Shown: positions 10,424-50,860, counted from the stretch's first letter. The stretch is 64,000 nucleotides of DNA from an uncultured Ectothiorhodospiraceae bacterium (GCA_947259415.1 CAMYMI010000001.1:33842-97841), one strand, 5' to 3'. Notes: generated by a model from the sequence alone, not told the origin. Made by a program: numbers and translations.

Positions 10424-10921
10424 CTAGCCACGGGAGCGTGGCTTGCCCTGTCTGCGCAACAGCTTCCCCAGAGCCAGGTTGAGCAGGCTGTCACGCGACA
10501 ACCAGGGGATAACCGGTTTGGAAGCGCGCCGGTTGAACTCCCTGCGTAAGCGCCGCAGGTCCGGGTGTTTGTGATCTATCGCCAGACCCCGTCGCATTGC
10601 CATGTAGGCACCGCCCCTGAAGCCCAGCTGGTACTCGGCCATGGCCAGGTTGTAGTACACCTCCACATCCTCCTGTTCGGCGACAGCCGCCTGGCGGCAG
10701 AGCTTCACACCGTTCTCGTCGCCCATAAGGACGCGCACCAGCCCATGGAAGGAGGTGTATCGGTTCTGATAGATATCATCCATCTCGGCCAGTTCATCGG
10801 CAGCCCGGAACATCTCCAGCGCACCTTCAAGATCACGTCTCTCGTAGCGGCGCATCCCGTCGAGAAAGTCATCGCGCGGCCGTGTGCGGCTGCCGGTTTC
10901 CCATGGATCGTATTGTGCCAT
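10424..10921 (-). CDS. Hypothetical protein, TPR-like
   Basis: Start moved to MAQYDPWETG (ATG 10921); helical repeats (..YYNLAMAEYQLGF..); no family assignable. Confidence 0.35.
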   Translation of the reverse strand: MAQYDPWETGSRTRPRDDFLDGMRRYERRDLEGALEMFRAADELAEMDDIYQNRYTSFHGLVRVLMGDENGVKLCRQAAVAEQEDVEVYYNLAMAEYQLGFRGGAYMAMRRGLAIDHKHPDLRRLRREFNRRASKPVIPWLSRDSLLNLALGKLLRRQGKPRSRG

Positions 10922-11151
10922 CGCCACTCCCAGATAGCGTCGCGCCTGGATTATCAACCACCCGTGTTGCCGTGTCCGCCGTCTGAAGACACTACTGGGA
11001 TCAACCACAGAACTCAGGCAGTTCTGGAGCAGCGGGAAGGGTAATCCATACAGCGGAAAACGCAAGCCGGGCGTCTTGACGCGGGCAGCGACTTCGAGCA
11101 ACCTTGCGACTCGCCGAACACCCGCAAACACGCACAGGATAGAACTACGGA

Positions 11152-12730: not shown

Positions 12731-12757
12731 GGGCCACGCCTAGCCGTGGCCTTTTTT
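12731..12757 (+). terminator. Intrinsic-terminator-like hairpin + U-tract (GGGCCACG-CCTAGC-CGTGGCC-TTTTTT) downstream of glgA and 5 nt upstream of ppc ATG
   Basis: Perfect 7-bp GC-rich stem followed by T6, read directly. Confidence 0.5.
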
Positions 12758-12761
12758 GTAC

Positions 12762-15593
12762 ATGACAAAAACAGAAACACCGGTATTCGAACTACCCCGG
12801 GACAAGGACTTGCGCAGCCGGGTACGGCTGTTCGGCAACCTGCTGGGCGAGGTGCTGCGCGAGCAGGCCGGCGAGGAGATACTGTCCGCCGTCGAGACCC
12901 TGCGCAAGGGTTATATCAAGCTGCGCAAACAGGACAATCCCGCATTGCGTACCCGCCTCTCCAGGGTCATCGACTCCCTGGACCCGGATCAGCTGACCCA
13001 TGTGATACGGGCATTCAACCTCTATTTCAGCCTGGTGAATATCGCTGAAGAATCCTTCCAGCACGAACAACGCCGACGCCAGGTCCGCAAGAAGGAACCA
13101 TTATGGGTCGGCTCTTTCTCGCAAACATTGCAGGCATTCCATGACGAGGGGGTGGAGCCCTATCAGCTGCAGATACTGCTGAACCAGGCACTCTATTTCC
13201 CGGTGTTCACGGCACACCCGACCGAGGCTATCCGCCGCACCGTCATGTCGGCACTGCGTCGCTTCTTCGTGACCAGTGAACAACTCGACGACATGCGGCT
13301 CGGCCGCGAGGAACGCAGGGAAATCACCGAGGATCTCAAGCGCCAGATACAGGTCCTGTGGAAGACCGACGAGGTACGGGTACACAAGCCCACCGTCGAG
13401 GACGAAATACGTAACGGGCTCTACTATTTTCGTGAAAGCCTGTTCGAGGCCGTTCCGCAGACCTACCGCTACCTGGAAAAGGCCATCAGGCGTGTCTATG
13501 GATCCGGCGACGACACCCCGATCGTAACCGTTCCCGGCGGTATCATACATTTCGGTTCCTGGATCGGCGGCGATCGCGACGGCAACCCTTACGTCAAGCC
13601 GGCCACTACTGTAACCGCCCTTCGGCTGCACAGCCGCGAGGTACTGATTACCTACCTGCGCCGCATCGAGGAATTGAGTTACCGACTCACCCATTCCTCA
13701 CGCCTGTGTTCCTTCTCGCCTGCGCTGCTCGACAGTATCAGCAGCGACGAGCAGCAATTCAGCGACGCCTGCTCACTGTACCCGACCCGCTACCTGCATG
13801 AGCCCTACCGACGCAAGCTGTGCATCATGCGCCACCGCCTGAAACTGAACCTGGCAGCCATCATCGAGCGCCTGGACAATCCGGACATCGACACGTCAAC
13901 ACAGGAGATTGGCTATGCCAGTGAGCAGGGCCTGTTGCAGGACCTGCAGCTGATCCGCGACTCCCTGATAGCAAATCATGACGCAAACCTGGCGGAAGGC
14001 AGGCTGAAGGACCTGATCCGGCTGGTGGAAACCTTTGGCTTCTTCCTGATGCATCTTGATATCCGCCAGGAGTCAACGCGCCATACCGAGGCCATCAGCG
14101 AGATCTGCCACGCCCTGCCGGGCGGCATTGACTATGACGCGCTCGATGAGGGTGCACGCCAGGAGTTCCTGACCCGGGCGTTTGCAACTGCACCGCCGGC
14201 GCTTGACCGAAGCGGCCTGTCGGTAGAAACACGCGAGGTCCTGGAGGTATTCGATGTCATGCAGCGCATGCGCCAGGAAGTCAGTCCTGAGGCCTTCGGG
14301 AACTATGTGATCTCCATGACGCATACGGCCAGCCATGTGCTCGAGGTCATGTACCTCGCCTGGCTAACCGGCCTGGCCGGGAAGCAGGCGGATCAGTGGT
14401 TCTGCAATATCCGCATCAGTCCACTGTTCGAAACCATCGACGACCTTGAGCATATCGAGGAGGTGCTGGCCCAGCTGCTGGATAACACAACCTACCGCTC
14501 ACTGCTGAACTGCGCCTGCAAGTGCCAGGAGATCATGCTGGGCTACTCCGACTCCTGCAAGGATGGGGGGATACTCGCATCCAACTGGAGGCTCTACGAG
14601 GCACAGAAAAAGATCATCGCCATTGCCGACACGCATGGCATCCAGTGCCGGCTGTTTCATGGTCGTGGCGGGACCATCGGGCGCGGCGGCGGCCCTACCC
14701 ACGAGTCAATCCTGTCCCAGCCGCCAGGCACGGTGCACGGACAGATCAAGTTCACCGAACAGGGGGAGGTGTTACGCTACAAGTACAGCAACGCCGAAAC
14801 CGCTGTCTACGAGCTCTCCATGGGTGTCACCGGCCTGCTGAAGGCGAGCCGGGTCGTGATCAGGCCGCATGAGGATGACCGCCGCGACTACATGGGGATC
14901 ATGGACGAACTCATCCGCCTTGGCGAGGCGTCCTACCGCGACCTTATCGACCACACCGAGGGCCTGTTCGATTATTTCTACGAGGTCACACCCGTCACCG
15001 AAATCGGCCTGTTGAATATCGGCTCACGTCCCTCGCATCGCAAGCAGCAGGACCGTTCCAAGACCTCAATCCGGGCTATCCCCTGGGTATTCGGCTGGGC
15101 CCAGTCCCGGCATACCCTGCCGGCCTGGTACGGACTGGGTACGGCGCTTGAGCAGTGGCGCGATGCCAACCCGGGGCGCATGTCACAACTCCAGATCATG
15201 TACCGCGAATGGCCCTTCTTCCATGCCCTGCTGAGCAACATCCAGATGGCACTGTTCAAGGGCGAGATGAACATCGCACACGAATACACCCGCCTGGCCA
15301 GTGACGCCGAGTCGGCCGAACGCATCTATCGCAAGATCAGTGATGAATACCGGCGTACCGTTATGCAGGTGCTGCATGTCTGCAATCTGCACCAGTTGCT
15401 CGAGGAAAGCCCGGCACTCGGTCTGTCGCTGCATCGCCGCAATCCCTACCTCGATCCGCTGAATAACATCCAGGTCACACTGCTGGCACGCTACCGCAAC
15501 AGCAATCTGTCCGACGATCAGCGTGAACGCTGGCTGCACCCGCTGCTGCGGTCGATCAATGCAATCGCCAGCGGAATGCGCAACACCGGCTGA
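12762..15593 (+). CDS. ppc: Phosphoenolpyruvate carboxylase
   Basis: 943 aa; ..VFTAHPTE.., ..GYSDSCKDGG.., C-terminal ..QNTG; first ATG at 12762 (track ORF begins at TTG 12756). Confidence 0.9.
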   Translation: MTKTETPVFELPRDKDLRSRVRLFGNLLGEVLREQAGEEILSAVETLRKGYIKLRKQDNPALRTRLSRVIDSLDPDQLTHVIRAFNLYFSLVNIAEESFQHEQRRRQVRKKEPLWVGSFSQTLQAFHDEGVEPYQLQILLNQALYFPVFTAHPTEAIRRTVMSALRRFFVTSEQLDDMRLGREERREITEDLKRQIQVLWKTDEVRVHKPTVEDEIRNGLYYFRESLFEAVPQTYRYLEKAIRRVYGSGDDTPIVTVPGGIIHFGSWIGGDRDGNPYVKPATTVTALRLHSREVLITYLRRIEELSYRLTHSSRLCSFSPALLDSISSDEQQFSDACSLYPTRYLHEPYRRKLCIMRHRLKLNLAAIIERLDNPDIDTSTQEIGYASEQGLLQDLQLIRDSLIANHDANLAEGRLKDLIRLVETFGFFLMHLDIRQESTRHTEAISEICHALPGGIDYDALDEGARQEFLTRAFATAPPALDRSGLSVETREVLEVFDVMQRMRQEVSPEAFGNYVISMTHTASHVLEVMYLAWLTGLAGKQADQWFCNIRISPLFETIDDLEHIEEVLAQLLDNTTYRSLLNCACKCQEIMLGYSDSCKDGGILASNWRLYEAQKKIIAIADTHGIQCRLFHGRGGTIGRGGGPTHESILSQPPGTVHGQIKFTEQGEVLRYKYSNAETAVYELSMGVTGLLKASRVVIRPHEDDRRDYMGIMDELIRLGEASYRDLIDHTEGLFDYFYEVTPVTEIGLLNIGSRPSHRKQQDRSKTSIRAIPWVFGWAQSRHTLPAWYGLGTALEQWRDANPGRMSQLQIMYREWPFFHALLSNIQMALFKGEMNIAHEYTRLASDAESAERIYRKISDEYRRTVMQVLHVCNLHQLLEESPALGLSLHRRNPYLDPLNNIQVTLLARYRNSNLSDDQRERWLHPLLRSINAIASGMRNTG

Positions 15594-15684
15594 GGCCTGC
15601 CCCGGGGCATTCCAGGCAAATCACGGCCAGTCCTCGGGATGGGTTATAGTATCAGAACCTTGGTCTAGCGGAGTCAACCTGCCG

Positions 15685-17052
15685 ATGGCAAAACGGCTTG
15701 CACTGGTTGTCGATGATTCAAAAACAGCGCGCATTACCCTGCAACGCATGCTGGAGAAACAGGGCGTTGATGTCGACACTGTGGAATCCGCTCAGGATGC
15801 TCTGAATTACCTTGCCGGCAAGACCCCGAATCTGATCTTCATGGACCACATGATGCCGGGGATGGATGGCTTCCAGGCCGTTAAGGCCATCAAGAAAAAT
15901 CCTGCTACCGCTATCATCCCCATCATGATGTATACCTCCAAGGGGGGTGAGCTGTACATGAGCCAGGCGCGCGCCCTGGGTGCGGTCGGCATCATGCCCA
16001 AGGAAGTCCAGCCAGCTGAACTGTTCCAGGTGCTCAAGCGGCTCGATATGATCGAGGACCGGCGCAAGCCATCGCCCACCGGGACCAATCAGTTTGTGCT
16101 CCTCGACACGACCCCGGAAGTCAGTCCTGGTCCTGGCCCCGGCCGGGACGCGATCCAGGAGATTGCCCGGGAGGCAGCCGAGTCGATCAACCATGACAGC
16201 GAGCTGCAGCTGCATCTTGGTGACCTGCTGGAGCGCTACCACAACGACCTCCGGGAAGAGATCCAGCGGCTCCGCGACGACCTGGGGCAACCGGTGGCCA
16301 GGGCCACGGGGCTCGGTGCACTGCGGCGAACAGTCCGCACCGGCGGCGTATTCATCCCTCTGGTGGTCCTGCTGATCCTGCTGATCCCGCTACTCTGGAT
16401 GTACCGTTTCAGTGATGAAACACTCCAGGAACTGGAAGACGCCCGGGAGTTGATCGCCAGCTTGCAGGCCCGGCAACAGCAACAGGTTCAACTGGCGAGC
16501 ACGGAAAGCGCCACCTTGCGCAGCCGGCTGGATGAACAGCAAAACCGCAACAATGAACAGTCAGCGCTGCTGTACAAGAGCATCACCTGGGCCATCAACC
16601 AGAGCAGTCCCTACGATATTCAACAAGAGGCCTTCAGCGACCGGCGCCTGGCCATTGTGCACGAACTGGTATCACGCCTGCAGGCCCTGGGATTCAAGGG
16701 GACGCTCAGGCTGGAGTCACACCTGGGGGAATTCTGCCTGGTCGGCTCTGAGGCCGATGGCTACACACTCGCCCCCGCTGATCTGCCGGTGCGTGACTGT
16801 GCTGTCTACGGACACCCGTTGCAGCACCTGCCGGCGATCGGCGAACGGCAGTCGATCGCATTTGCCAATTTTCTTGCCACTTCCCCGCTGGTCAACGACA
16901 GTGATATCAGCATCGAGATCGTCTCCCACAACTACAACCAGCCGCGGGTACCCTACCCGGCACGGCATTCCGATATCACTGCCTATGAATGGAACCGTAT
17001 CGCCGCGACCAACAACCGCGTGGAGATCAACCTGGTGCCGTCGGGCTCCTGA
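15685..17052 (+). CDS. Response-regulator receiver (CheY-like) fused to a TM helix, coiled coil and OmpA/MotB-like C-terminal domain
   Basis: Receiver signature LALVVDDSKTARITL..IFMDHMMPGMDG..MMYTSKGG; PGPGPG linker; hydrophobic GGVFIPLVVLLILLIPLLWMY; Q-rich coiled coil; C-terminus ..ERQSIAFANFL..NNRVEINLV resembles the end of OmpA_C-like domains. Confidence 0.6.
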   Translation: MAKRLALVVDDSKTARITLQRMLEKQGVDVDTVESAQDALNYLAGKTPNLIFMDHMMPGMDGFQAVKAIKKNPATAIIPIMMYTSKGGELYMSQARALGAVGIMPKEVQPAELFQVLKRLDMIEDRRKPSPTGTNQFVLLDTTPEVSPGPGPGRDAIQEIAREAAESINHDSELQLHLGDLLERYHNDLREEIQRLRDDLGQPVARATGLGALRRTVRTGGVFIPLVVLLILLIPLLWMYRFSDETLQELEDARELIASLQARQQQQVQLASTESATLRSRLDEQQNRNNEQSALLYKSITWAINQSSPYDIQQEAFSDRRLAIVHELVSRLQALGFKGTLRLESHLGEFCLVGSEADGYTLAPADLPVRDCAVYGHPLQHLPAIGERQSIAFANFLATSPLVNDSDISIEIVSHNYNQPRVPYPARHSDITAYEWNRIAATNNRVEINLVPSGS

Positions 17053-17082: not shown

Positions 17083-19032
17083 TCAGCCCTCCTCATCGGC
17101 TGGCGGCCCTTCCATCAATTCCTTCCACCTGATGATCAGGTAGGGCATGGACTCCGGCGAGTCCTGCAACTGGGCACCGGCCCAGGCAGCGGTTTTGAAT
17201 GCCTTCCCGGTATAGTCCCGGTTACCTCCCAGACGTCCCAGGTCCAGCAGGGTATGGACCGCGATCCCGTTGGCCGACAGTATCGCCCCGTCACTGGCCT
17301 CTTTCTCACGCAGCCATAGTTCGGTATTCGCCGGGGTACGGTAAAACCCGCCATTTTCGGCATCCCAGTAAATGGCAAGCAGTGAATCGGCCAGCTGCCG
17401 CGCCTGCAGCAGGTAGGGCTTCTCACCCGTCACCTTGAAGAGGCCCAACAGCCCCTGGGCGAGCGCAGCGTAATCATCGCTGAAGCCCGGCACGCCCCGC
17501 ACACCGTGGCGCCAGTCCCGGTAAAGCACACCGTCCTTCTCGTCATAGAGTTCATCCATGACAAACGCCGCCGTGGCAGTAGCCACCTCGATATAACGCG
17601 GCTCATCCAGCAGGCGTCCGGCCATGGCCAGTGTCGTGATCATGTAGCCATTCCATGCCGTCACAACCTTGTCATCCAGCGGCACGGGGGGACGCTCCCG
17701 GCGCGCCTCGAGCAGTCGCTGTTTCACCCCGGTATCGCGCTTGCTGGCACTGGCCAGGTCGAGCTTGAACTGCTGGGCCAGGGCCGCGCTATCCAGCGCC
17801 AGGTAAGGCACATTGCGGCCGCCCATCTCGCCCAGCGGGTCACTCAGTGCATTGCCCTGCTCTGTCATGCCATAACGTGCTGCTGCCCAATCGCGTAAAT
17901 CACCGTCACCGAGCGCCTCGGTGAGTTGTTGCCAGGTCCAGGTGTAATACACCCCCTCCTCCATGTGCCCGGAGCGGTCATGACCGGCATAGCTGTCTGC
18001 ACTCAGCGCAGAATGGAAACCACCCCGGTCGTCATGCAGCTGTGCAAGGGAAAAATCGAGGATCTCGCGTGCAACCCCGGCATGGCGCTCATCCCGGGTA
18101 AGCCGGTAGGCCGCCAGGTAGGCGCGCGCCACCAGCGCCTGGTCATAGAGCATCTTCTCGAAATGCGGCACCCGCCACTCGAGATCTGTGGAATAGCGGT
18201 GTATACCGCCCTCGAGCTGGTCGTAGATGCCACCCGCCGCCATCTTGTCCAGGGTATGCAGCGCCATATCTACGCTGGCCGGTTCCCCCGACTGCAACAG
18301 GAACAGCAGGCGCCCCGGCTGCGGGAACTTGGGCGACGGGCCAAAGCCCCCATGGAACTCATCGTAGTTGGCGGCGAATTGCTTGTGGGCCCGGGTGGGG
18401 ATGTCATCCGTCAGCCTGGACAGGGGGGTGACCGAAGACCCGATCTCGCGCAGTATGGCCACGGCATTCTGCGCCGACTCCTGGATGCGCTCGGGTGCCT
18501 CTCTCCAGAGTTCATCCAGCGTGGACAGGATCTGTGTCATGCCGGGCCGGCCCAGGCCGGGTTCCGGTGGGTAATAGGTGCCGCCCATGAACGGATGGCC
18601 CTCCGGTGTGGCCCACACAGACATCGGCCAGCCGCCCTGCCCGCTCGTTGCCATCACATAATTCATGTAGACCGCATCCACATCCGGGCGCTGCTCACGG
18701 TCAACCTTGATGGACACGAAGCCCTTATTCAGCAACGCAGCGATTTTGGGATTGCTGAACGACTCGCGTGCCATGACATGGCACCAGTGACAGGTGAAAT
18801 AACCGATCGAGATGAATACCGGCTTGTTCTCCCGGCGCGCCTTGGCGAACGCCTCCTCGCCCCAGGGGTACCACTCCACCGGGTTATCGGCATGCAGACG
18901 CAAGTAGGGACTGGACTCCAGCGCCAGCCGCCAGCCACCGGTTTTTCCCCCGGTCACGGCATCGCTGGCCGGCACCAGCAGAATAGCAGCGACCAGGCAG
19001 GCCCGGAGATGGCGACCCAGCGTAACGGTCAT
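17083..19032 (-). CDS. Thioredoxin-domain protein, DUF255/YyaL family (thioredoxin-like + six-hairpin glycosidase-like domain)
   Basis: ..[50 protein letters not shown].. is the diagnostic DUF255 block; signal peptide from ATG 19032. Confidence 0.75.
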
Positions 19033-19105
19033 TGTGTGCAAGGAGCTGTTTCGGTCATGCCTGATTGGAGCCCCGCCAGCGGGAATGGTTCCTGCCACCG
19101 GGGAG

Positions 19106-38137: not shown

Positions 38138-38760
38138 CGATTTGCTCCGGTGGCGACGTTGTTCTGGCTGATCTGTTCACGCAATTCACTGATCCACGAA
38201 AGCAGTTGTCTGTCTTGCGACTGCGTCAACTGCTGGTAATTCTGGTAGTGGGTCAGGGCCTGTGCCGGGTTTGCCAGGTAACGATCGTTGAGGATGCCGA
38301 GGTTCCAGTGGATGCGCTCATCATTCGGATTAATTTTGAGTCCCTGGTTGTACATTGAGGCGGCTTCTTCCAGCCGGCCGCTGCGGCGATACAGGATGCC
38401 CAACTCGTTGTATGCCACGATCTGTCTGTCATTTACATCGATTGCCTTTATAAAGGCTGCCTCGGCACCGACCATATCTCCTATCTTGTTGCGTGCAATG
38501 CCGAGATTCGTCCACGGGCCGGACAGCCGTGGGTTTGCTGCGGTGATTGCGGCAAGCTTGTCTGTGGCAAGGTGCCAGTCCTCGGCCTTCATCAATTCCA
38601 GGGCGACCTGGAATTCGCCCTCAATGTCTGTGACTGTTGCCGTTTCCACTACCGTGGCACCGGAGGCAGGCACCATGGCGTGTTCCTGCGGTGCACTGGC
38701 GCAACCAGCAAGCATGATTACGACAGTAAATATCAGTACATTAACGTAGCGCAGTGGCAT
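38134..38760 (-). CDS. TPR-repeat lipoprotein (208 aa)
   Basis: Lipobox VIMLAGCAS after ATG 38760; TPR repeats (..AAFIKAIDVNDRQIVAYNELGILYRRSGRLEEAASMYNQGLKINP..). Confidence 0.55.
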   Translation of the reverse strand: MPLRYVNVLIFTVVIMLAGCASAPQEHAMVPASGATVVETATVTDIEGEFQVALELMKAEDWHLATDKLAAITAANPRLSGPWTNLGIARNKIGDMVGAEAAFIKAIDVNDRQIVAYNELGILYRRSGRLEEAASMYNQGLKINPNDERIHWNLGILNDRYLANPAQALTHYQNYQQLTQSQDRQLLSWISELREQISQNNVATGANR

Positions 38761-41539
38761 AGTCTGTGCTCCTTTCCAGCTTGGCGAATTTGCCCGGCAC
38801 CAGTTGAGCCAGTGCCTTGAGGCTTTTCTCGATCCAGGCGTCGTACAGACCTGACTCGATACGCACGGCATTGGTCTCGTGCAGCGCGATGGCCTGTTCT
38901 TCGAACGGGTATGCCAGATCTTCCAGCAGGATGTTGTATTCCTCTAGTGCCTCGGTGTTGAGATTGCTCGGACGCTCGGATTCCATCAGTGCCTCGGCAA
39001 GATGGGTGTAGAGTTGTGCGGTGTGGTAGGCGGCGGCTGTAGTGATTTCGGCCACGTTGTAGGCGGCAGCCTGCTCATACTGCGCCAGGGTCGATTCCAG
39101 CAGTTGCTTCTTGGTGGCGAGTGTCTTGTCCAGTGGCAGCTTCAATGCGATCGCACTGTACTGAGCATTTTGTGCACCAGCCAGAACCAGTCGCGCCTGT
39201 GCAGCAAGGTAACGCGTACGATCGGTGCGACCACGACCAGCCTGTGCATCGGCCATGATGATGGAATTCAGCCATTGGTGCCACTGCAGGCTGTCACCAG
39301 ACGATTTATAGTACAGTGCGATGCGATGACGTGCCTCGATGGCATCTTCCACCGGCTGCGGGAACTGCTCGACATAATAGACATATACTGCTGTCGATTG
39401 TGCAGTGTGCCCGGCATTTGTATACATCTCGGCAGCCTGCCACAGAGCATCACTGCGCATCTTCACATCGCCGCTTGTGCGCCCGATGCGTTCGAATTCC
39501 TGTGCGGCCAGCAACGGTCGGGCGCTGCCGAGATAGGCCGTAGCAAGCCGGCGTGTGACCTCCGCCTGGCGGGGATCATCCGGATAAGCATCACGGAATT
39601 GTTCCAGTGTTCTGGCAGCGGCGGAAAAGTCATTTAGACTCATCAGACCGGCAGCGGCATCGTATTCCGCGGTGGCGACGATACCTGCGGTCGGTGCGGC
39701 ATTGCGCACACGCTGGAAGTGGCCCACAGCGACTCGGGTGTCACCGGCGGCCTGCGCAGCCTCTCCCTGTTTGTAGATGCAAGCTGCAAGTCTCTCGGTA
39801 TAAACGGAATTATTCTTGCTGTTTGATGCTGTACGGGCGAGCACCTGCTGGTAGGCCTGTTCGGCATGCAGGAAGTCCTCGAGATCGAAATAGGCATGCG
39901 CCTGGACCGTCCAGCTCACGCGTTGCTGTACGTCCGTGGCCGCCTTGTTATCGATGACCAACTGTGCAACCTGAATGGCACGCGGGTTCTCGTTGATCGC
40001 CAGTAACTGTTCCGCAGAGCGTGTCAATACTGCCAGTGACTGCGGATGTCGCGGGAAACTTGCAGCAAAGCGTAGTGCATTTTCAATGGAGCCGCGATGC
40101 CAGGCTGCTTTTTCAGTCCCGGACAGATGCGCCTCTTCCTTGTCGAAGGCAAGCACGGAGGCATAACCAGCCTCGGCGGCCTTGTCATGCTGGCCGTAGT
40201 CATAGGCAGTATGCACGAACTCCACACCTGCTTCACGGTACTTGCCTGATTCGTCGAGAAGTTCAGCCAGCAGGAAGTTCATATCCGGTGCGGCCGGGTC
40301 ATCCGAAAACGAGCCCAGCCAGGTGCGATACCAGTGTGTGGCCTCGGCGTAGTCTTGCGGCTTGCGGGTTAACTGTGCCTGTGCGTGATAGTGGCGCGAC
40401 AGGTCGGTCATGGTTACCTTAAGGAAGCCGAGCACCTGGCCTGCATCAGCCTTGTCGTGATGTTTCCAGTATTCGCCCAGTAGATTATAGCGGTCAACAA
40501 ATGCCTTCTTGCCTTTCAGCACCAGCGTGGGGAAATTGCCGGCCTGGTAGGCATCGATCACCCGCATCTGAAAGGCCGGTGCCTGGCGGTGGATCGGGTT
40601 GCTGGCTACGAATGACTGAAAGGTCTCGGCAGCATCAGTATAACGCTCCTTGTCGAGGTACAGCTTGCCGAGGCGGTCGTACACCAGGTCTTCATAGTTG
40701 CGCGGGCCGTGCTGAGCAAATAAGCCAGCCACTGTGCGCGCACCATCTTCATAGGAAAAACTCAGGCTCATCACACGCAGGGTGTCATCCACCATTTCAC
40801 GTTCTGCTCTTCCCAGCCCTGCCAGCAGCTCGTCGCTATCCGTGTTCTGCGGGAGCTTGCTGTCAAGCAATCCAGTGAAGGTATCGAGTCCCGCGCTGAA
40901 CAGCCCCTGTTTGAAGTAGCACCAGCCCAGCTTGTAGAGCGACTGCTGAAAAAACGGGTTGTCACCGCCGGAATCGACGACGGCCTTGTAGGCGTTCTCG
41001 GCTCCGTGGTAGTCCTTCTTCACGAACAGGATTTCACCTCGCCGGAACTGTGCCTCGAGCCGACGATGGCTTTCCGGGTATTGCGCTACCAGTTGCTCCA
41101 GTGCAACCAGTGACTTGTCCGGTTCACCCCCGAGTTCATAGGCGCGTGCCAGCTGGTAAAGCACGAAATCATTGTCGGAGCGCCCCGGATAGGTTTCCAG
41201 CACCTGCTGGTAGAGATATATCGAATCCTGAACCTGCTGCGGATAGTCAGATACCAGCGCAGACCTGTCAGGTTCAGATTCCGGCAGAGCTTCGGCTTCC
41301 AGGTTGATGTCTGCTAGCCGGCGCATGGCCAGCGGACGTGCGTCGGTCTGATCATCGGTTTCCAGGAAGCGGCGATAGGCGTTCATGGCCTGCTGTTCAC
41401 TGGACTCGATTGGCACATCATCCAGTTTGTTCGGGTGCCTGCTGAGATCACCAATGGTCGCTACATTATCACCACGAAACATCGAGCAACCGCTGCTGGC
41501 TAGTACGGCCGTCAAAAGGAGTACCAGCCAGCGTATCAC
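38741..41539 (-). CDS. Large TPR-repeat lipoprotein (932 aa)
   Basis: Lipobox LASSGCS; TPR-like helical repeats throughout (..YKLGWCYFKQGLFSAG.., ..ALWQAAEMYTNAGH..). Confidence 0.6.
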   Translation of the reverse strand: MIRWLVLLLTAVLASSGCSMFRGDNVATIGDLSRHPNKLDDVPIESSEQQAMNAYRRFLETDDQTDARPLAMRRLADINLEAEALPESEPDRSALVSDYPQQVQDSIYLYQQVLETYPGRSDNDFVLYQLARAYELGGEPDKSLVALEQLVAQYPESHRRLEAQFRRGEILFVKKDYHGAENAYKAVVDSGGDNPFFQQSLYKLGWCYFKQGLFSAGLDTFTGLLDSKLPQNTDSDELLAGLGRAEREMVDDTLRVMSLSFSYEDGARTVAGLFAQHGPRNYEDLVYDRLGKLYLDKERYTDAAETFQSFVASNPIHRQAPAFQMRVIDAYQAGNFPTLVLKGKKAFVDRYNLLGEYWKHHDKADAGQVLGFLKVTMTDLSRHYHAQAQLTRKPQDYAEATHWYRTWLGSFSDDPAAPDMNFLLAELLDESGKYREAGVEFVHTAYDYGQHDKAAEAGYASVLAFDKEEAHLSGTEKAAWHRGSIENALRFAASFPRHPQSLAVLTRSAEQLLAINENPRAIQVAQLVIDNKAATDVQQRVSWTVQAHAYFDLEDFLHAEQAYQQVLARTASNSKNNSVYTERLAACIYKQGEAAQAAGDTRVAVGHFQRVRNAAPTAGIVATAEYDAAAGLMSLNDFSAAARTLEQFRDAYPDDPRQAEVTRRLATAYLGSARPLLAAQEFERIGRTSGDVKMRSDALWQAAEMYTNAGHTAQSTAVYVYYVEQFPQPVEDAIEARHRIALYYKSSGDSLQWHQWLNSIIMADAQAGRGRTDRTRYLAAQARLVLAGAQNAQYSAIALKLPLDKTLATKKQLLESTLAQYEQAAAYNVAEITTAAAYHTAQLYTHLAEALMESERPSNLNTEALEEYNILLEDLAYPFEEQAIALHETNAVRIESGLYDAWIEKSLKALAQLVPGKFAKLERSTDYATALR

Positions 41540-43404
41540 TGAACACCGTCCTTACCGGGATACAGGGCACTGTCAAGGGTTTGCGCCAACGAAAAACGCG
41601 CCTGCACGATGTAGGAATCAAGGCGTTTCTTCTGCTGTTCGAGTTCATTCATGGCCAGCTGCTCAATGAGCTCACCCTGCACCAGATAGACCAATTCGGT
41701 GCGTTCCAGCAGCGCCTTTATGAGCATCCGGTTAGTATCGATGCGCTGGTTGAACGCATCGAAACCTGACGGTGTGGTGATACGGGCCGAGTTGAGTGAT
41801 TGCAGTACCCGCGTGGACTCGTCCAGCAGGTCGGCCACTTGTGACAGCTGACGCTTTACCTGCCACAGGCGAGGCTTGTACTGGCTGCTGAGTTGCCAGT
41901 ATAGCGCTCCCTCCACACGCGCCTGGCGTTCACGCAGTGTATCTGTATCAGGATTCACTGGAAGTCCAGACAGCTTTACTTTTATATCCTCGAGTTTATT
42001 CCACTGTTCAGCTTCTGAGGTATCCGCCAGTCCGACCGGATCGTTGGCACCCTCGACCTGAGCCAGACGCACCCTGAGTTGGCGATGACGCTGCTCTATA
42101 GTTTCGCGGTCTTCGGATCGCAGCGCGCGTTCGGCCGCGGGTTGCTTGTCTGCAAAGCGATGCTCGCGCGCGGATAGCATATCGTCATAGGCATCGATAT
42201 TGGTGGCCCAGGTCTGCAGGTTGTTACGCAGGATCGACAGGTCACGGTAGTTCTTGACTGCTTCCTGAAATTCATGTGTTGCCATCAGCGCAACCTGGTA
42301 GCGCAGTGCCGGTGACTGGCTGTCCATTGTCAGCTCCTGTAGCCAGCCGGAACCGGTACGCGGGTCCTGTCCCTGCAGTGTCTCCAGCAACTCGCCATTT
42401 CTGATTGCATCAATCGACTCGTTGAGCTTGTCCTTTTCGTCAAACAGCGTGTCAATAACATCATTGTATTGCTGCACTGCCCGGCCATGCAGATTCATCC
42501 TGGTCATGGCATACGGCACCGCCAATAATGCTTCCTGTACGGCCGGATCGGTGGCATTACGCCTGCCGAGCTCACTCCATGGCACCAGTGCATGGCCGAA
42601 TTCATCCGCTTCCGCATTCGCCCAGCCAGCACCAAGCAATGCCTTGTTGGAGAGTGGTCCCTCGAGTCGGACACGCTCGAGTATTTCGCGTGATTGCTGC
42701 GCAGCTCCACCCTGAAGATAGCTGTAACCGAGTGCCAGGTTTGCCTTGTCGCGCAGCAGCCTTAATTCCTCACTGCGACCGGAGAGTTCACCCAGGGTAT
42801 CCAGTTCCTTCGCGCCGCGTTCCAGTTGACCATTGCGAATATAGGCGACACCCAGGTTATAAGCGAGATATGGAGACCAGACATTATTGTCTTTTGACGC
42901 CTCCAGAACCTCGATGGCCGCATCATTCTGGCCGAGCTGCAGCAACAGCAGGCTGTGCAGCTGTGAAACCTCGACGCGCGTGGTGCGCGTCATGTCGCCG
43001 CTGACCCGAGACAGTGCCTGCAGCGCGTTGACAGTGTCGCCGCGCTGATATGAGATCTTGGCAAGATAGAACCAGGCACGGTTGCGGATCTGTTCGTCGG
43101 CGTGCTCGTTTGTCAGCAGGCGTTCGAAAATCGTGCTGGCCAAGTTACGCAGCCCATAGGACAAGTCAAGTCCGCCCAGCAGTAACTCAGCCTCATCGGC
43201 ATGATTGGGCAGCCGCTCCTGTGTCTTTGCGATTTGCAGACGAACAATGCTGTTGAACCAGTCATCCTGATAATAGTAATAAAGCACTTCCCCGTACTGG
43301 AGGTCCTGCGCCGTTGAGGGTGATATGCGGTCAGCTGCGGTTGCTTGCATCATCAGCAGCGTTAGCGACAACAGCAGAATGAATCTGCGGGCAACGCACT
43401 GCAT
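41536..43404 (-). CDS. Secreted TPR + coiled-coil protein (622 aa)
   Basis: Signal peptide LLMMQATAADR; N-terminal TPRs (..AWFYLAKISYQRGD.., ..YNLGVAYIRNGQLERG..) then long coiled-coil C-terminal half. Confidence 0.55.
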   Translation of the reverse strand: MQCVARRFILLLSLTLLMMQATAADRISPSTAQDLQYGEVLYYYYQDDWFNSIVRLQIAKTQERLPNHADEAELLLGGLDLSYGLRNLASTIFERLLTNEHADEQIRNRAWFYLAKISYQRGDTVNALQALSRVSGDMTRTTRVEVSQLHSLLLLQLGQNDAAIEVLEASKDNNVWSPYLAYNLGVAYIRNGQLERGAKELDTLGELSGRSEELRLLRDKANLALGYSYLQGGAAQQSREILERVRLEGPLSNKALLGAGWANAEADEFGHALVPWSELGRRNATDPAVQEALLAVPYAMTRMNLHGRAVQQYNDVIDTLFDEKDKLNESIDAIRNGELLETLQGQDPRTGSGWLQELTMDSQSPALRYQVALMATHEFQEAVKNYRDLSILRNNLQTWATNIDAYDDMLSAREHRFADKQPAAERALRSEDRETIEQRHRQLRVRLAQVEGANDPVGLADTSEAEQWNKLEDIKVKLSGLPVNPDTDTLRERQARVEGALYWQLSSQYKPRLWQVKRQLSQVADLLDESTRVLQSLNSARITTPSGFDAFNQRIDTNRMLIKALLERTELVYLVQGELIEQLAMNELEQQKKRLDSYIVQARFSLAQTLDSALYPGKDGVQ

Positions 43405-45291: not shown

Positions 45292-46884
45292 CTAGACCAC
45301 CCCGTTCACAATGGCATTGAACGCGGTCAGGCTGTCCATCATCGAGGCATTGCCGAGGCCATGACCGGGAAACAGATTTGGGAAATTGGCTGCCTCTCCA
45401 TGCAGGGCCATATAGTTGAGGATGACCGTCTCGACCAGCAGGTTGACCTGGTTGGCTGCGGGAGTTGCGGTGGTTTCAACCGATGCGTCCGGGCGCATCC
45501 AGCCGATCTGCTGGTGCATTGCCTGTTCTGCAGCGCCCAAACCAAGCAATGTCGGGCGTCCTCCGGGGTTGTAGACCAGGAAGAACGAGGCTGCGGTAGA
45601 CGAGTTATCACCGGTCCAGACACCCTTGCCGCCAGCCGCACCGTCGGTCATGCCGTTACTGAATACCGAGCCGTCACTGCAGACGTAGATCATCAGAGGT
45701 ACGCCGGCACCATTGTTGGCGCGTGCGGCATATTCCAGGCAGGCACCGATACAGCGTCCGGCGCGCAGGTCGCGAAGTTCGCCTGTAATACGGTCACCGG
45801 TGTGGTAGTCATAGCCGCCCATGGTGATGGTACCGGCGCCGGAAAAGCCGTTAATCACCATCTTCATAACTGAGGCGGTCTTTCGAAATTCGTTGTCGCT
45901 GTCGAACTCTGCCTGGCTGAAGATACCTGCCGGGCCGACGATGTCCGGATCAAGCGCGGGGTTTAGTGTAGATGGATCGCCAAAGCGATCGGCGATATCA
46001 GCCGCCTTGACGTAGCCGCAGCGCACCAGGTCCTTGATGACGGCATCGGCAGTAAGCTTGGTGTCGACCTTGTCGAGTTTCATCTTGCTGATACGCTCGA
46101 TGGATTCCATGACTGCAACCGCGTCATCCTGGGTCAGCGCGCCGATCAGCTGACCGGTATCGACCATGCCGGTGACATCCGAGGGGCGATCCACCTTGGT
46201 CGGGCGGATACTCGGATCTATCATCATGGTTGGCGCCATGGAGTTGCCACCGGAATCTGAACTGCGCGAACCAATCAGGGTCAGCAGACTGCCGTCAGCG
46301 CCGGCCCTGGCAATGCCATACATTGGGTTATGCGGATTGTTGCCGGTATCGTTGTCAGAGCGTGCAGGAATGATTGCGCCATTGATCAATGCACTGCGCC
46401 CCTGCGCCTTTTCGCCGATACCCTGCAACATGGCACTGGTGGAATGAAAGGCTAGCCCGAAGTCAGTATTGATGAAACTGGTGCCGGTATTCGGATCAAT
46501 AGAGGCCGGCGTCATGTCACCCGGAAGACCCAGCTTGCTGTAACCGGCGGTGCTCAAAAAATCCAGCTGACCACCCTGCTGTCCTACCAGTACGTTGGAG
46601 CCGGAAATATTAGCGCCACCGGCCAGATCGAAACAGATAAACGGGATCTTGCCGGCACCAAGCGATTTGATACCACAGGACGTTTTTAACGCTTCGATAT
46701 CGGGAGACAGTGCAGCGGCAGCCGAGCGCGGGTTGGCAAACAGCCCGAACAGCGAGGGCGCAGTCACCAGTCCGACGCCGGCAATCAGACCTTGCCCTAT
46801 AAAATCACGGCGCGTCAGCGGTCGGCCGTGGTCATTCAGACACAGCGGCTCGTCCGGTAAGCGTATATTGCGTTTTCGCGTCAT
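45292..46884 (-). CDS. Tat-exported protein, DUF1501-like (sulfatase/alkaline-phosphatase-like fold, tentative)
   Basis: Twin-arginine signal LTRRDFIGQGLIAGVGLVTAPSLFG; ..IPFICFDLAGGANISGS.. and ..MGGYDYHTGDR.. resemble the DUF1501 conserved blocks (GGxD, GGxDxH); start taken at MTRKRNIRL. Confidence 0.55.
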   Translation of the reverse strand: MTRKRNIRLPDEPLCLNDHGRPLTRRDFIGQGLIAGVGLVTAPSLFGLFANPRSAAAALSPDIEALKTSCGIKSLGAGKIPFICFDLAGGANISGSNVLVGQQGGQLDFLSTAGYSKLGLPGDMTPASIDPNTGTSFINTDFGLAFHSTSAMLQGIGEKAQGRSALINGAIIPARSDNDTGNNPHNPMYGIARAGADGSLLTLIGSRSSDSGGNSMAPTMMIDPSIRPTKVDRPSDVTGMVDTGQLIGALTQDDAVAVMESIERISKMKLDKVDTKLTADAVIKDLVRCGYVKAADIADRFGDPSTLNPALDPDIVGPAGIFSQAEFDSDNEFRKTASVMKMVINGFSGAGTITMGGYDYHTGDRITGELRDLRAGRCIGACLEYAARANNGAGVPLMIYVCSDGSVFSNGMTDGAAGGKGVWTGDNSSTAASFFLVYNPGGRPTLLGLGAAEQAMHQQIGWMRPDASVETTATPAANQVNLLVETVILNYMALHGEAANFPNLFPGHGLGNASMMDSLTAFNAIVNGVV

Positions 46885-46906
46885 GAGATTAACCTCGTTT
46901 TGGTTC

Positions 46907-49435
46907 CTACTGCAGCAGCATCGCAGCACTGCCCAGTATTGCTGCGCAACTTGCCTTGACTATTTCCTCTGTACGCGCGGGTGTCGCACACGTCGGTGAT
47001 GATCCTGTTGCGCAGCCGGTCAGGATCAGGATGAGATCATCAATCTCACTGGTCACGTTTGCCGGATCAGGCTGCACTGTCAGTCCCGTATTCATCACCC
47101 TGTCGATCAACGGTACGATCATCAGGTCACGCTTGGTCGGTGTATCAAATGCGGTATCGGCACTTTCTGGCGGTAAACCGCTGGTGAAGAACCCGGGGAA
47201 ATAGCTCTCACGTGAGATCGTGCCATTGTTATCGACCAGTGCACTGCAGTATTCAATCGCCATCTGCGAGATCGCCATCTGATGTGCAGACAGGAAGCCC
47301 TCGATATTCTCTACAGTCGGCAACTGCTGCATGACCGTCTGGTACACCGTCTTGACATCGACCTGCCCGGTACTCACGCCGGTGATCGCTGCCAGCGTGG
47401 CATTGATCTCGTGAAAGTTGCGCAGGCCGATATCGGATGCCTCCGGCAGATCGGGTGGTGGTGCCGGTGCAATGGGTGCGGGCTCTACCACGACATTGTT
47501 AGCATTGCCGAATACTTCGAATGTCAGGAAGAACTGATCGGCACTAGATCCCTTCTCGAGCGCGATAACAGTACCTAAATCCGAGAGTGTCTGGCCAACA
47601 CTGGGCGTGTAAAGTGCGCTGCTGATCGTGGTGTTGAGATGCTTGTAGGCCTGGCCTACAGTCGCTTCCTTGCCGTTTATTCCGATACGCATGCCGGCGA
47701 CCGGGATGCCGTCCGGTGCTGCGTTCGGATCAAGACTGATGAAGCGCGGATTATTGAACAGGTAACTGTAGCTGTCGAACTGGCTTACCTCAAACAGAAC
47801 ATAGCTGTCGGTAATGCCGCTGTGATCGTCGACGTTGAACAGCAGGTAGAATTTCTCGCCAACGCCGACCGAAAAGTTCTGGGTGATCTGTTCCTGGGTC
47901 AATGCACGGTTGTGAATAGCCACCATGCGCAGCATGCCCTGCCACTGGCGGTCGCCTGAAACCTCGTTTCCCAGCACGAAGGCAAAGCTATTATCCCAGT
48001 CAATCAGGGTTCCTCCCTGGACCAGATCGACATCGTCGGTGAACACGCCATTGACGAAGATGCGACGACCGTTGACCGGGTCGTAGGTGGCAACCACATG
48101 CTGCAGCGTCGCCTGGAGGTCTTCATCGGCATCGGCCGTATCCAGCGACGGATCGCCATTGGCGTCCGTCGTCGTGCTGCGGTTCATAACGTTGTAGCTA
48201 TACAGGGTCTGCCCGAGCGTGAAGTTACGCTCTGTTGTACCGGCGGAATAGCTTATGATGCGCGCCGGTCCCTGTTGCGACACATTGGCCGGAGCGACCC
48301 AGGCCTCAATAGTGTATTCACCGGTGGCAGTAATAAGGTTATACAGTTTCTGACTGCTGGTGGTAGTTGCCTGGGCCTTGCCGCTGGTGACATTAATTCC
48401 CCAGCCGCCGACCCAGTCGACGCCACCGCTCAGGGTGAGGTGCATGTCCGGCGCTACGCCACTGGTATCAAATGCGATATTACCCGAGCCGGTCTTGAAC
48501 TGGTACATGGCAATGACGTTGTTATCGTAGCGATTGCCACCACTGGCAACGATACCGTCGGGCAGGGTCAATGCCTTGCTTGTTACCAGGTTCGGATCGA
48601 TTGTGGTCACACTGATCGAGCTGGCATATGCCGTAATTGCATTTTCCATTGCAATCGCAGACGCAGCGCAGTCGGAACTGCCACTATTGTTCGGGTCCCA
48701 GCAATTGTGGAATTCATCGCGCAGTCGCACCACGAACCGAGAATTGTCCGGTGCATCCAGATCGATCTTCGGCTTTGCCGCCTCATAGGCGGAGTCCGGG
48801 TCACTGTTGGCAAAGAACGGTGACTGTGCGTCGGTGGATGAGTCTGTATGACAGCCTGCACAATTTGCGGTAAGTACAGGATGCACTGTCGCTGCAAAAC
48901 CGGATGAGTCGGCCGGAAACGATTTGCTGTCGCCCGGATCCTTCAGTGGTGGCGCGGTCAGCGGGATAACCGTGCCGGAACCTGCCAGACCACCGGCCCA
49001 GGCAGTGATATAGGCGGTAATCACGTCGGCACAGGCCTGATCACTGGCCAGCCAGCAGTTATGCCCGGCAGCCACCTTGGTGGCCATGAGAGAATTAGCC
49101 GGCGTAATCATGTCCACTATGGCGTTGGCATCAGCATACGCCAGATTGATATCGTCATCGCGCACGAAGGTCGGGGCCTGGCCAGCGGTGGCGTGACAGT
49201 TACCGCAACGATTACTCGGACTGAGGTTATCCCAGACGTTCAGCTTGAAGGCCTGCACATCCGTAGTCGCCGGTGGCGGCCCGCTGTAATTCGAGGTCGA
49301 CGCTACCGCGGCGGTATTCGGGATTTGGGAGGTACTCTCCCCGCCACCACAGGCCGTCAAACCGGCAGCTATGCCAACGATGACCGCCTGCACAAGGATG
49401 TTATCAAGCAACCTGGGAAGAATTGGGTATTTCAT
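46907..49435 (-). CDS. Lipoprotein with two c-type haem motifs (CGNCH, CAGCH), LamG/ConA-like jelly-roll domain and C-terminal domain (PSCyt-like architecture)
   Basis: Lipobox AAGLTACGG; CxxCH at ~aa 77 and ~aa 192; ..EAWVAPANVSQQGPARIISY..WQGMLRMVAIHNRALTQEQI.. typical Laminin_G_3; 842 aa. Confidence 0.6.
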   Translation of the reverse strand: MKYPILPRLLDNILVQAVIVGIAAGLTACGGGESTSQIPNTAAVASTSNYSGPPPATTDVQAFKLNVWDNLSPSNRCGNCHATAGQAPTFVRDDDINLAYADANAIVDMITPANSLMATKVAAGHNCWLASDQACADVITAYITAWAGGLAGSGTVIPLTAPPLKDPGDSKSFPADSSGFAATVHPVLTANCAGCHTDSSTDAQSPFFANSDPDSAYEAAKPKIDLDAPDNSRFVVRLRDEFHNCWDPNNSGSSDCAASAIAMENAITAYASSISVTTIDPNLVTSKALTLPDGIVASGGNRYDNNVIAMYQFKTGSGNIAFDTSGVAPDMHLTLSGGVDWVGGWGINVTSGKAQATTTSSQKLYNLITATGEYTIEAWVAPANVSQQGPARIISYSAGTTERNFTLGQTLYSYNVMNRSTTTDANGDPSLDTADADEDLQATLQHVVATYDPVNGRRIFVNGVFTDDVDLVQGGTLIDWDNSFAFVLGNEVSGDRQWQGMLRMVAIHNRALTQEQITQNFSVGVGEKFYLLFNVDDHSGITDSYVLFEVSQFDSYSYLFNNPRFISLDPNAAPDGIPVAGMRIGINGKEATVGQAYKHLNTTISSALYTPSVGQTLSDLGTVIALEKGSSADQFFLTFEVFGNANNVVVEPAPIAPAPPPDLPEASDIGLRNFHEINATLAAITGVSTGQVDVKTVYQTVMQQLPTVENIEGFLSAHQMAISQMAIEYCSALVDNNGTISRESYFPGFFTSGLPPESADTAFDTPTKRDLMIVPLIDRVMNTGLTVQPDPANVTSEIDDLILILTGCATGSSPTCATPARTEEIVKASCAAILGSAAMLLQ

Positions 49436-50632: not shown

Positions 50633-50795
50633 GCGCTCTATCCCGGCTTGTTATGGTTTCAGGACCTGTCTTCGGCCCGTGCAGGCAGATACTGATGCGA
50701 TAAGCGTTTTTTTTCTATGACGTGGTTCGCGGAATGGGTCTCCGCACCAACCTATAGTTGAGCTGCGAGCAACGGGGATCGATTAGTGTGCACCA

Positions 50796-50813
50796 GGTCA
50801 CAGTTATGTGACC
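50796..50813. promoter_or_regulatory. Perfect palindrome GGTCACA-GTTA-TGTGACC in the divergent promoter region
   Basis: 7-bp inverted repeat with 4-bp spacer, ~48 nt upstream of the 892-aa gene ATG and ~165 nt upstream of the 397-aa gene start. Confidence 0.3.
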
Positions 50814-50860
50814 CGTACCGTCCCACGTATCAGGTTTACCGCCCGGAGGGCCGATCAGCT

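Follow-up and report, generated by a model that had tools for sequence, protein, structure and literature searches.

A response regulator with a predicted periplasmic OmpA-like domain in an uncultured Ectothiorhodospiraceae bacterium

A gene at positions 15685 to 17052 of a 64,000-nucleotide stretch of DNA from an uncultured Ectothiorhodospiraceae bacterium (GCA_947259415.1, CAMYMI010000001.1:33842-97841; hereafter the window) is predicted to encode a response regulator with an undescribed periplasmic output derived from the OmpA-like fold, the function of which we infer throughout. Response regulators are nearly always cytoplasmic, and their outputs include DNA binding, enzymatic activity, and protein binding. 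Literature searches for a REC domain combined with an OmpA-like domain, or for an REC-transmembrane (TM)-OmpA-like architecture, returned no precedent; the sole paper containing all of the terms was unrelated, and the nearest mention was of rare membrane-anchored output domains in archaeal response regulators (PMC5847659). An earlier note on this DNA had proposed a cytoplasmic receiver followed by a single TM span, a periplasmic Gln-rich coiled coil, and a C-terminal domain resembling those of the OmpA type. A four-part architecture of this topology, with a helix at the place of the coiled coil, was supported by the analyses described below.

The receiver and the membrane-spanning helix

The open reading frame (ORF) delimited in the earlier note proved to be a complete coding sequence of 455 codons plus a stop (15685..17052, + strand; all features of this gene given below lie on the same strand). 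Because full-length homologs with 35-80% identity are present in dozens of genomes, it is not a chance ORF. An alternative, longer ORF initiated by GTG opens at position 15523. Since homologs open with a MAKR or MAHR methionine, and since a GGAG that may serve as a ribosome-binding site (15670..15673) stands 11 nt upstream of the ATG, we take ATG 15685 to be the correct start.

The CheY-like receiver that had been recognized at the N terminus was readily recovered. A Pfam scan matched PF00072 over residues 7-117 (15703..16035) with 86.7 bits against a cutoff of 30.2 (E=1.5e-24), and a search of the PDB placed CheY/RR468-type single-domain receivers (4ja2, 3dge, and CheY; E~1e-17) nearest to this region among solved sequences. 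REC was the only domain detected when the full protein and three subfragments were scanned against Pfam and NCBIfam; matches to NMD3_OB, syntaxin, YabA, and TetR_C were weak (E>0.1) and were set aside as noise. The acidic pocket (D10 and D11), the phospho-acceptor (D54; codon 15844-15846), the switch residue (T84), and the Lys (K106) were invariant in 67 full-length genomic homologs, the set in which all residue counts reported here were made, and REC is the best-conserved region of the protein in the family alignment. These signatures mark the gene product as a genuine receiver-domain protein whose phospho-acceptor site is intact, and its phosphorylation is predicted.

The protein had also been described as an orphan regulator, and this holds both at the locus and across the family. 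No histidine kinase was found among the 20 window ORFs scanned, and de novo clustering of neighboring genes in 80 retained loci, on which our neighborhood and locus analyses are based, revealed no conserved kinase or other partner. The absence of an adjacent cognate kinase would fit a pseudo-receiver scaffold, that is, an unphosphorylated receiver forming part of a static structural element that spans the envelope. Degenerate receivers usually lose their catalytic and switch residues, however, whereas all five are invariant here and lie in the most conserved part of the protein; we consider such a scaffold very unlikely.

Between the receiver and the membrane lie two further segments. The first is a Pro/Gly-rich cytoplasmic linker (residues 121-153; 16045..16143), which is poorly conserved (mean majority fraction, 0.32) and of low confidence in the AlphaFold model (predicted local distance difference test score [pLDDT], <50). 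The second is a long cytoplasmic amphipathic helix (residues 154-207; 16144..16305), recognized from the AlphaFold model, from its periodicity, and from its presence in the aligned full-length members. Located as it is between REC and the TM segment, this modeled helix is a candidate for relaying the signal.

The stretch GGVFIPLVVLLILLIPLLWMY (residues ~219-240; 16339..16404) is the sole strongly hydrophobic segment of the protein, with a Kyte-Doolittle value of 2.78 over 19 aa, and contains no acidic residue. A hydrophobic maximum is kept family-wide (minimum, 1.63; median, 2.45 across the homologs). In the AlphaFold model, the segment passes unbroken into the periplasmic part to form one helix of residues 223-307, with pLDDT values of 79-93 from residue ~231 onward; the block from 221 to 230, inside the TM segment, averages 62. 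The earlier reading of this segment as a single membrane-spanning helix, as opposed to a buried one, was upheld by its hydrophobicity, the continuous helix, and its retention in the family.

Beyond the membrane the same helix forms a periplasmic stalk (residues 241-296; 16405..16572; pLDDT, ~80-93). Its sequence is poorly conserved in the family, and the spacing between the TM segment and W302 is held to 53-66 residues. The Gln-rich coiled coil that had been proposed for this region was confirmed in part: the helix is indeed Gln-rich in our protein (10 Gln per 60 residues), whereas the heptad periodicity expected of a coiled coil was weak (family-averaged p~0.1, not significant), and a 3.6-residue signal was stronger. 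We regard a coiled coil as plausible.

Because the protein has no signal peptide and its N-terminal receiver needs cytoplasmic phosphodonors, the predicted orientation is N-in, C-out. The distribution of Cys is in keeping with this. Exactly two Cys residues, C351 and C372, occur in the periplasmic part of all 67 homologs, both of them invariant, and the N-terminal part is usually free of Cys. A periplasmic structural disulfide would be expected to leave such a pattern, which lends support to a C-out topology. Acidic residues are twice as common on the C-side flank of the TM segment as on the N-side flank across the family, and in our protein the N-flank carries four Arg residues (RATGLGALRRTVRTG) and the C-flank is acidic. 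A positive-inside test based on Lys plus Arg gave similar counts on the two flanks family-wide and did not discriminate between orientations.

A divergent OmpA-like domain

The C-terminal domain (residues 297-455; 16573..17049) is conserved in the family (mean majority fraction, 0.61). Modeled alone from a 25-sequence alignment, it gave a pLDDT of 89 and a predicted template modeling score (pTM) of 0.81. When this model was searched with Foldseek, the top 50 matches were all OmpA-like domains (best E=7e-4), with TM-scores normalized to the target of 0.5-0.64, and they included MotB, PomB, MotS, ZorB, and YfiB. The structural resemblance to OmpA-like folds on which the earlier note had relied is thus present in the model, and we conclude that the domain, as predicted, is OmpA-like at the fold level. 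It is probably a very distant homolog of OmpA-like domains.

This relationship left little trace in conventional searches, as the domain had no Pfam, NCBIfam, or PDB sequence match. One marginal match to the OmpA-like domain of FopA (E=0.086), obtained when a family profile (A2) was searched against the PDB, was rejected. Its register pairs helix alpha1 of the family (DRRLAIV) with alpha2 of FopA (EKRAQAV) and cannot account for the ~100 structurally aligned residues. With a more diverse profile built from 50 family members (A3), the FopA match was gone, and only chance matches of the F5/8-type-C kind were obtained. A search with the PF00691 hidden Markov model (HMM), which the earlier note had suggested as a check, likewise gave no match even at E<=10, with either the full protein or its C-terminal part alone. 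PF00691 was absent from the precomputed Pfam annotations of homologs, and a scan of ten diverse members at E<=0.01 returned REC-type families only, all in the N-terminal part.

We compared profile A3 with a reference alignment (A4) composed of Pal, OmpA, MotB, and a Pseudomonadales Pal; a broad search with a Pal/OmpA/MotB profile had given nearly only enterobacterial Pal, and A4 stayed at these four sequences. The hhalign comparison had low confidence (probability, 5%; E=0.007), and its register agrees with the predicted secondary structure. It paired PYDIQQEAFSDRRLAIVHELVSRLQALGFKGTLRLESHLGE with the A4 stretch ahead of the insertion described below and GER-QSIAFANFL with GER-RANAVKMYL. Alignments with the single sequences of OmpA and the second Pal reproduced the second half of this register and paired NNRVEI with DRRVEI. 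The motif resemblance cited in the earlier note also held, its blocks ERQSIAFANFL and NNRVEINLV matching the respective OmpA_C motifs, ERRAxxVxxYL and (D/N)RRVEI, in these alignments.

In AbOmpA, the residues reported to bind diaminopimelate (DAP) are Arg286 and Asp271 (PMC12108004), and neither is conserved at the aligned position in our family. In the aligned helix, S390, F393, F396, and L397 correspond to the Ala, Val, Tyr, and Leu of the motif, and the position of the DAP-binding Arg in 'LSxxRA' is therefore that of Gln389 (codon 16849..16851), as assigned by hhalign against the profile, OmpA, and Pal. Position 389 is Gln in 62 of the 67 homologs. An Arg at position 388 is kept in 59 of them, one position out of register with the DAP-binding Arg. 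The Asp of '(H/N)TD' falls, in the best-supported hhalign register, on Gly348 (codon 16726..16728), which is Gly in 67/67; this register is shared by the Pal profile, MotB, and the first half of an earlier hhalign run. Other single-sequence alignments place the Asp271 position in a variable loop after GHP. A family-wide Asp at the HTD position was found in none of these registers, for which alignment confidence is low.

The ligand-binding region differs in other ways as well. A 25-residue beta insertion (residues 350-374; 16732..16806), which faces a gap in Pal, OmpA, and MotB and has no counterpart in them, sits at the ligand loop after strand beta2. It carries both C351 and C372, which we predict to form a disulfide. 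N443, N444, and R445 are near-invariant, with one Arg of the (N/D)RRVE strand replaced by Asn. These three, together with H346, E349, R388, Q389, F393, W436, N437, and R438, make up a set of family-conserved residues around the ligand-loop region, which suggests an altered functional pocket. Judged by three defining tests of OmpA_C, namely, an HMM match, the Arg, and the Asp, the domain is on present sequence evidence not a canonical member; it has the fold in common with OmpA_C domains and may function in a somewhat similar manner. Its setting differs too: the OmpA_C domains of Pal, OmpA, PorE, and OprF are linked to a barrel in the outer membrane or to a lipid anchor, whereas here the domain is carried by a predicted inner-membrane response regulator.

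These departures bear on the function that the earlier note had assigned to the protein, that of a peptidoglycan tether controlled by phosphorylation. In the canonical form of such a tether, the C-terminal domain would bind diaminopimelate in the manner of Pal, OmpA, and MotB, with the receiver switching this anchoring on or off. The OmpA-like fold favors it, as do the NNRVEI end and the ERxSxxFxxFL helix, and the stalk, whose ~60 helical residues would extend ~9 nm at 1.5 Å per residue, could reach the wall like the linker of MotB. The absence of a PF00691 match, the change of Arg to Gln, the invariant Gly or variable loop at the Asp271 position, and the insertion that occupies the ligand loop all argue the other way. 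Canonical peptidoglycan anchoring is not supported by these observations, and we regard the tether as quite improbable.

Predicted signaling across the inner membrane

Our preferred reading, to which we give about an even chance, is that the protein is a bitopic inner-membrane response regulator that signals from the inside out, with phosphorylation of the receiver relayed to binding by the periplasmic domain. A kinase whose gene lies elsewhere would phosphorylate Asp54 of the cytoplasmic receiver. The modification would then alter the packing, and probably the dimerization, of the receiver and the cytoplasmic helix, and this change would travel along the TM segment and the stalk into the periplasmic domain. 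There it would shift the binding of the domain within the envelope, either to the cell wall in a noncanonical manner or to another envelope partner.

A more specific version of this proposal is that the protein represents the first described two-component response regulator with an output acting in the periplasm, its remodeled and disulfide-braced pocket binding a noncanonical target. We advance this only tentatively, judging it somewhat likelier to be wrong than right. If it is correct, the pocket could bind, for example, a modified component of the wall, a protein of the outer membrane or periplasm, or a protease, and a kinase acting through such a protein would control the envelope directly and posttranslationally, without transcription. 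In a conserved and fairly widespread family, an output lying across the inner membrane would extend two-component signaling to direct, fast, inside-out control of the envelope, and the OmpA-like fold would gain a branch with a shifted ligand.

The same architecture could be read in the opposite direction. As an outside-in sensor, the OmpA-like domain would read the state of the envelope or wall and control the accessibility, phosphorylation, or dephosphorylation of the membrane-tethered receiver, which would then be a phosphate sink or a phosphorelay docking site. Some single-domain receivers do act as phosphate sinks, and ours resembles stand-alone receivers of the CheY/RR468 type both in sequence and in lacking a cytoplasmic output domain, although it differs from them in having ~335 additional, membrane-spanning residues and no chemotaxis gene context. 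The conserved residues of the periplasmic pocket would fit ligand binding, and YfiB, one of the fold matches, demonstrates that envelope sensing by an OmpA-like domain is possible. YfiB, the outer-membrane lipoprotein of the YfiBNR system, acts outside-in on YfiR/YfiN and, like the domain described here, uses the OmpA-like fold as a periplasmic signaling module beyond a purely structural anchor; it differs in having neither a receiver nor an inner-membrane TM helix. Sensing in this direction is difficult to square with multidomain response regulators in general, in nearly all of which the receiver at the N terminus serves as the input. Furthermore, only a helix follows the receiver on the cytoplasmic side, and no partner is encoded nearby. 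We consider an outside-in sensor unlikely.

The fold matches to MotB, PomB, MotS, and ZorB raised another alternative, namely, that the protein is a stator-like or energy-transducer-like subunit, analogous to MotB, PomB, ZorB, ExbD, or TolR, whose ion-channel partner would be regulated by phosphorylation. Like our protein, the stator proteins have a single TM helix joined by a periplasmic linker to an OmpA-like domain at the C terminus, and wall binding by MotB, PomB, and MotS is thought to be conformationally gated. Stators need an acidic residue in the TM helix, however, and GGVFIPLVVLLILLIPLLWMY has none. No MotA/ExbB/TolQ/ZorA-like gene adjoins the receiver gene in the window or is conserved in the 80 loci. 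PADLOC reported no defense-system match and no ZorB hit, giving only weak hits in the REC region. The pocket is altered, and the N-terminal part, a receiver of 120 aa plus a linker of 100 aa, is unlike stator B subunits. The stator-like reading is largely refuted by these differences, and we attach very little probability to it.

The proposed inside-out signaling has parallels in its logic. It matches the conformational gating of OmpA-like domains in MotB/PomB and YfiB, which are among the fold matches. In the cyclic di-GMP receptor LapD, a cytoplasmic module that binds the signal acts through TM helices on a periplasmic output domain, which in turn captures a partner in the envelope (PMC3032553, PMC3032545). 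The likeness to LapD is confined to this inside-out arrangement and implies no homology: LapD has a HAMP domain, degenerate GGDEF/EAL domains, a LapD_MoxY_N periplasmic domain, and two TM segments, whereas our protein has REC, one TM segment, and an OmpA-like domain. No HAMP, GGDEF/EAL, or LapD-type domain was detected in it, with Pfam finding REC only.

Distribution and genomic neighborhood

When 1.84 billion representatives were searched exhaustively with a family profile, 726 clusters (50% identity) were recovered at E<=1e-3, and 588 were recovered at the stricter cutoff of E<=1e-10. A match was confirmed in the genomes of at least 194 species, from which the 80 loci were retained. A word-indexed search gave only 40 relatives, gene fragments for the most part. 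Members are mostly 420-490 aa long, with the C-terminal domain at the extreme C terminus, and the four-part protein is complete in nearly all genomic loci. The named hosts are all Gammaproteobacteria and comprise metagenome-assembled genomes (MAGs) of Ectothiorhodospiraceae, Woeseiaceae, MAGs of Pseudomonadales, Thiogranum, Thiohalobacter, and cultured Lentisalinibacter. The closest relatives are from Ectothiorhodospiraceae MAGs, with 87% identity in the C-terminal domain. Members of the family abound in Woeseiaceae and in bacteria of the Ectothiorhodospiraceae type, which are typical of marine sediments.

Public databases name these proteins 'response regulator' or 'CheY-like chemotaxis protein' and list C-terminal fragments as 'hypothetical protein'. 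Given the first of these labels and the absence of the C-terminal domain from Pfam and NCBIfam, routine annotation does not reveal the family. Among two-component systems such an architecture is surprising, and it can be tested in cultured hosts, since cultured Lentisalinibacter carry the family and experiments are therefore feasible.

Near-identical fragments of our protein (P0038 and P0311; NNG13145.1, HKM88_07845) are deposited under a 'Halobacteria archaeon' MAG, although all full-length relatives are gammaproteobacterial; the contig was probably misbinned into the archaeal MAG. On a related metagenome contig (L081, 4933-7430), seven consecutive ORFs make up a broken ppc, and the receiver gene is in two pieces. 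The assembly of this contig is probably rich in frameshifts, which would account for many protein-database 'homologs' being short fragments.

In the window, the receiver gene is preceded on its own strand by glgA and ppc. The ppc gene (12756..15593, + strand; PF00311), which encodes phosphoenolpyruvate carboxylase and is given here as context, is separated from the receiver gene by a 91-bp gap containing no terminator-like site on the + strand, and cotranscription of the two genes is possible. It is directly upstream in every member with at least 50% identity and enough flanking sequence and is absent from the clade below 50%. With synteny confined in this way, we rejected ppc as a family-wide functional link, and it is probably not part of the receiver system. 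Downstream, a convergent DUF255 thioredoxin-like gene is followed by genes for cupin, DUF2905, GGACT, TatD, and ThiF proteins. The DUF255 gene (17083-19098, − strand) encodes a 671-aa YyaL-type protein, ends 30 bp past the stop of the receiver gene, and has kept this downstream place in about half of the loci of the close clade.

In several distant-clade loci (L043, L060, L064, L068, L073, and L077), a large membrane protein of the PAS-GGDEF/EAL type (cluster 11) is encoded within four genes of the homolog. This cluster was identified by motif reading, without an HMM, and was counted in five loci in one analysis and in eight overall. Its occurrence is too patchy for it to be called a partner, and it hints at a cyclic di-GMP-related context. 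When the window and the 80 loci were searched by regular expression and jackhmmer for canonical OmpA_C proteins, only one Pal and one barrel fragment were returned.

Two further regions of the window merit mention. Between the MiaB gene and glgA lies a 235-aa ORF (10424-11131, − strand) that has no Pfam match and has homologs in 11 related loci. Farther downstream, with neighbors at 38741-43404, 45292-46929, and 46907-49435 (all on the − strand), a gene at 50786-53464 (+ strand) encodes an 892-aa protein that matches the middle domain of the hydrazine synthase alpha subunit (PF18582; E=4e-16), an unusual match in a gammaproteobacterium. Beside it are two large TPR proteins, a Laminin_G_3 protein of 842 aa, and an ORF of 545 aa without a Pfam match.
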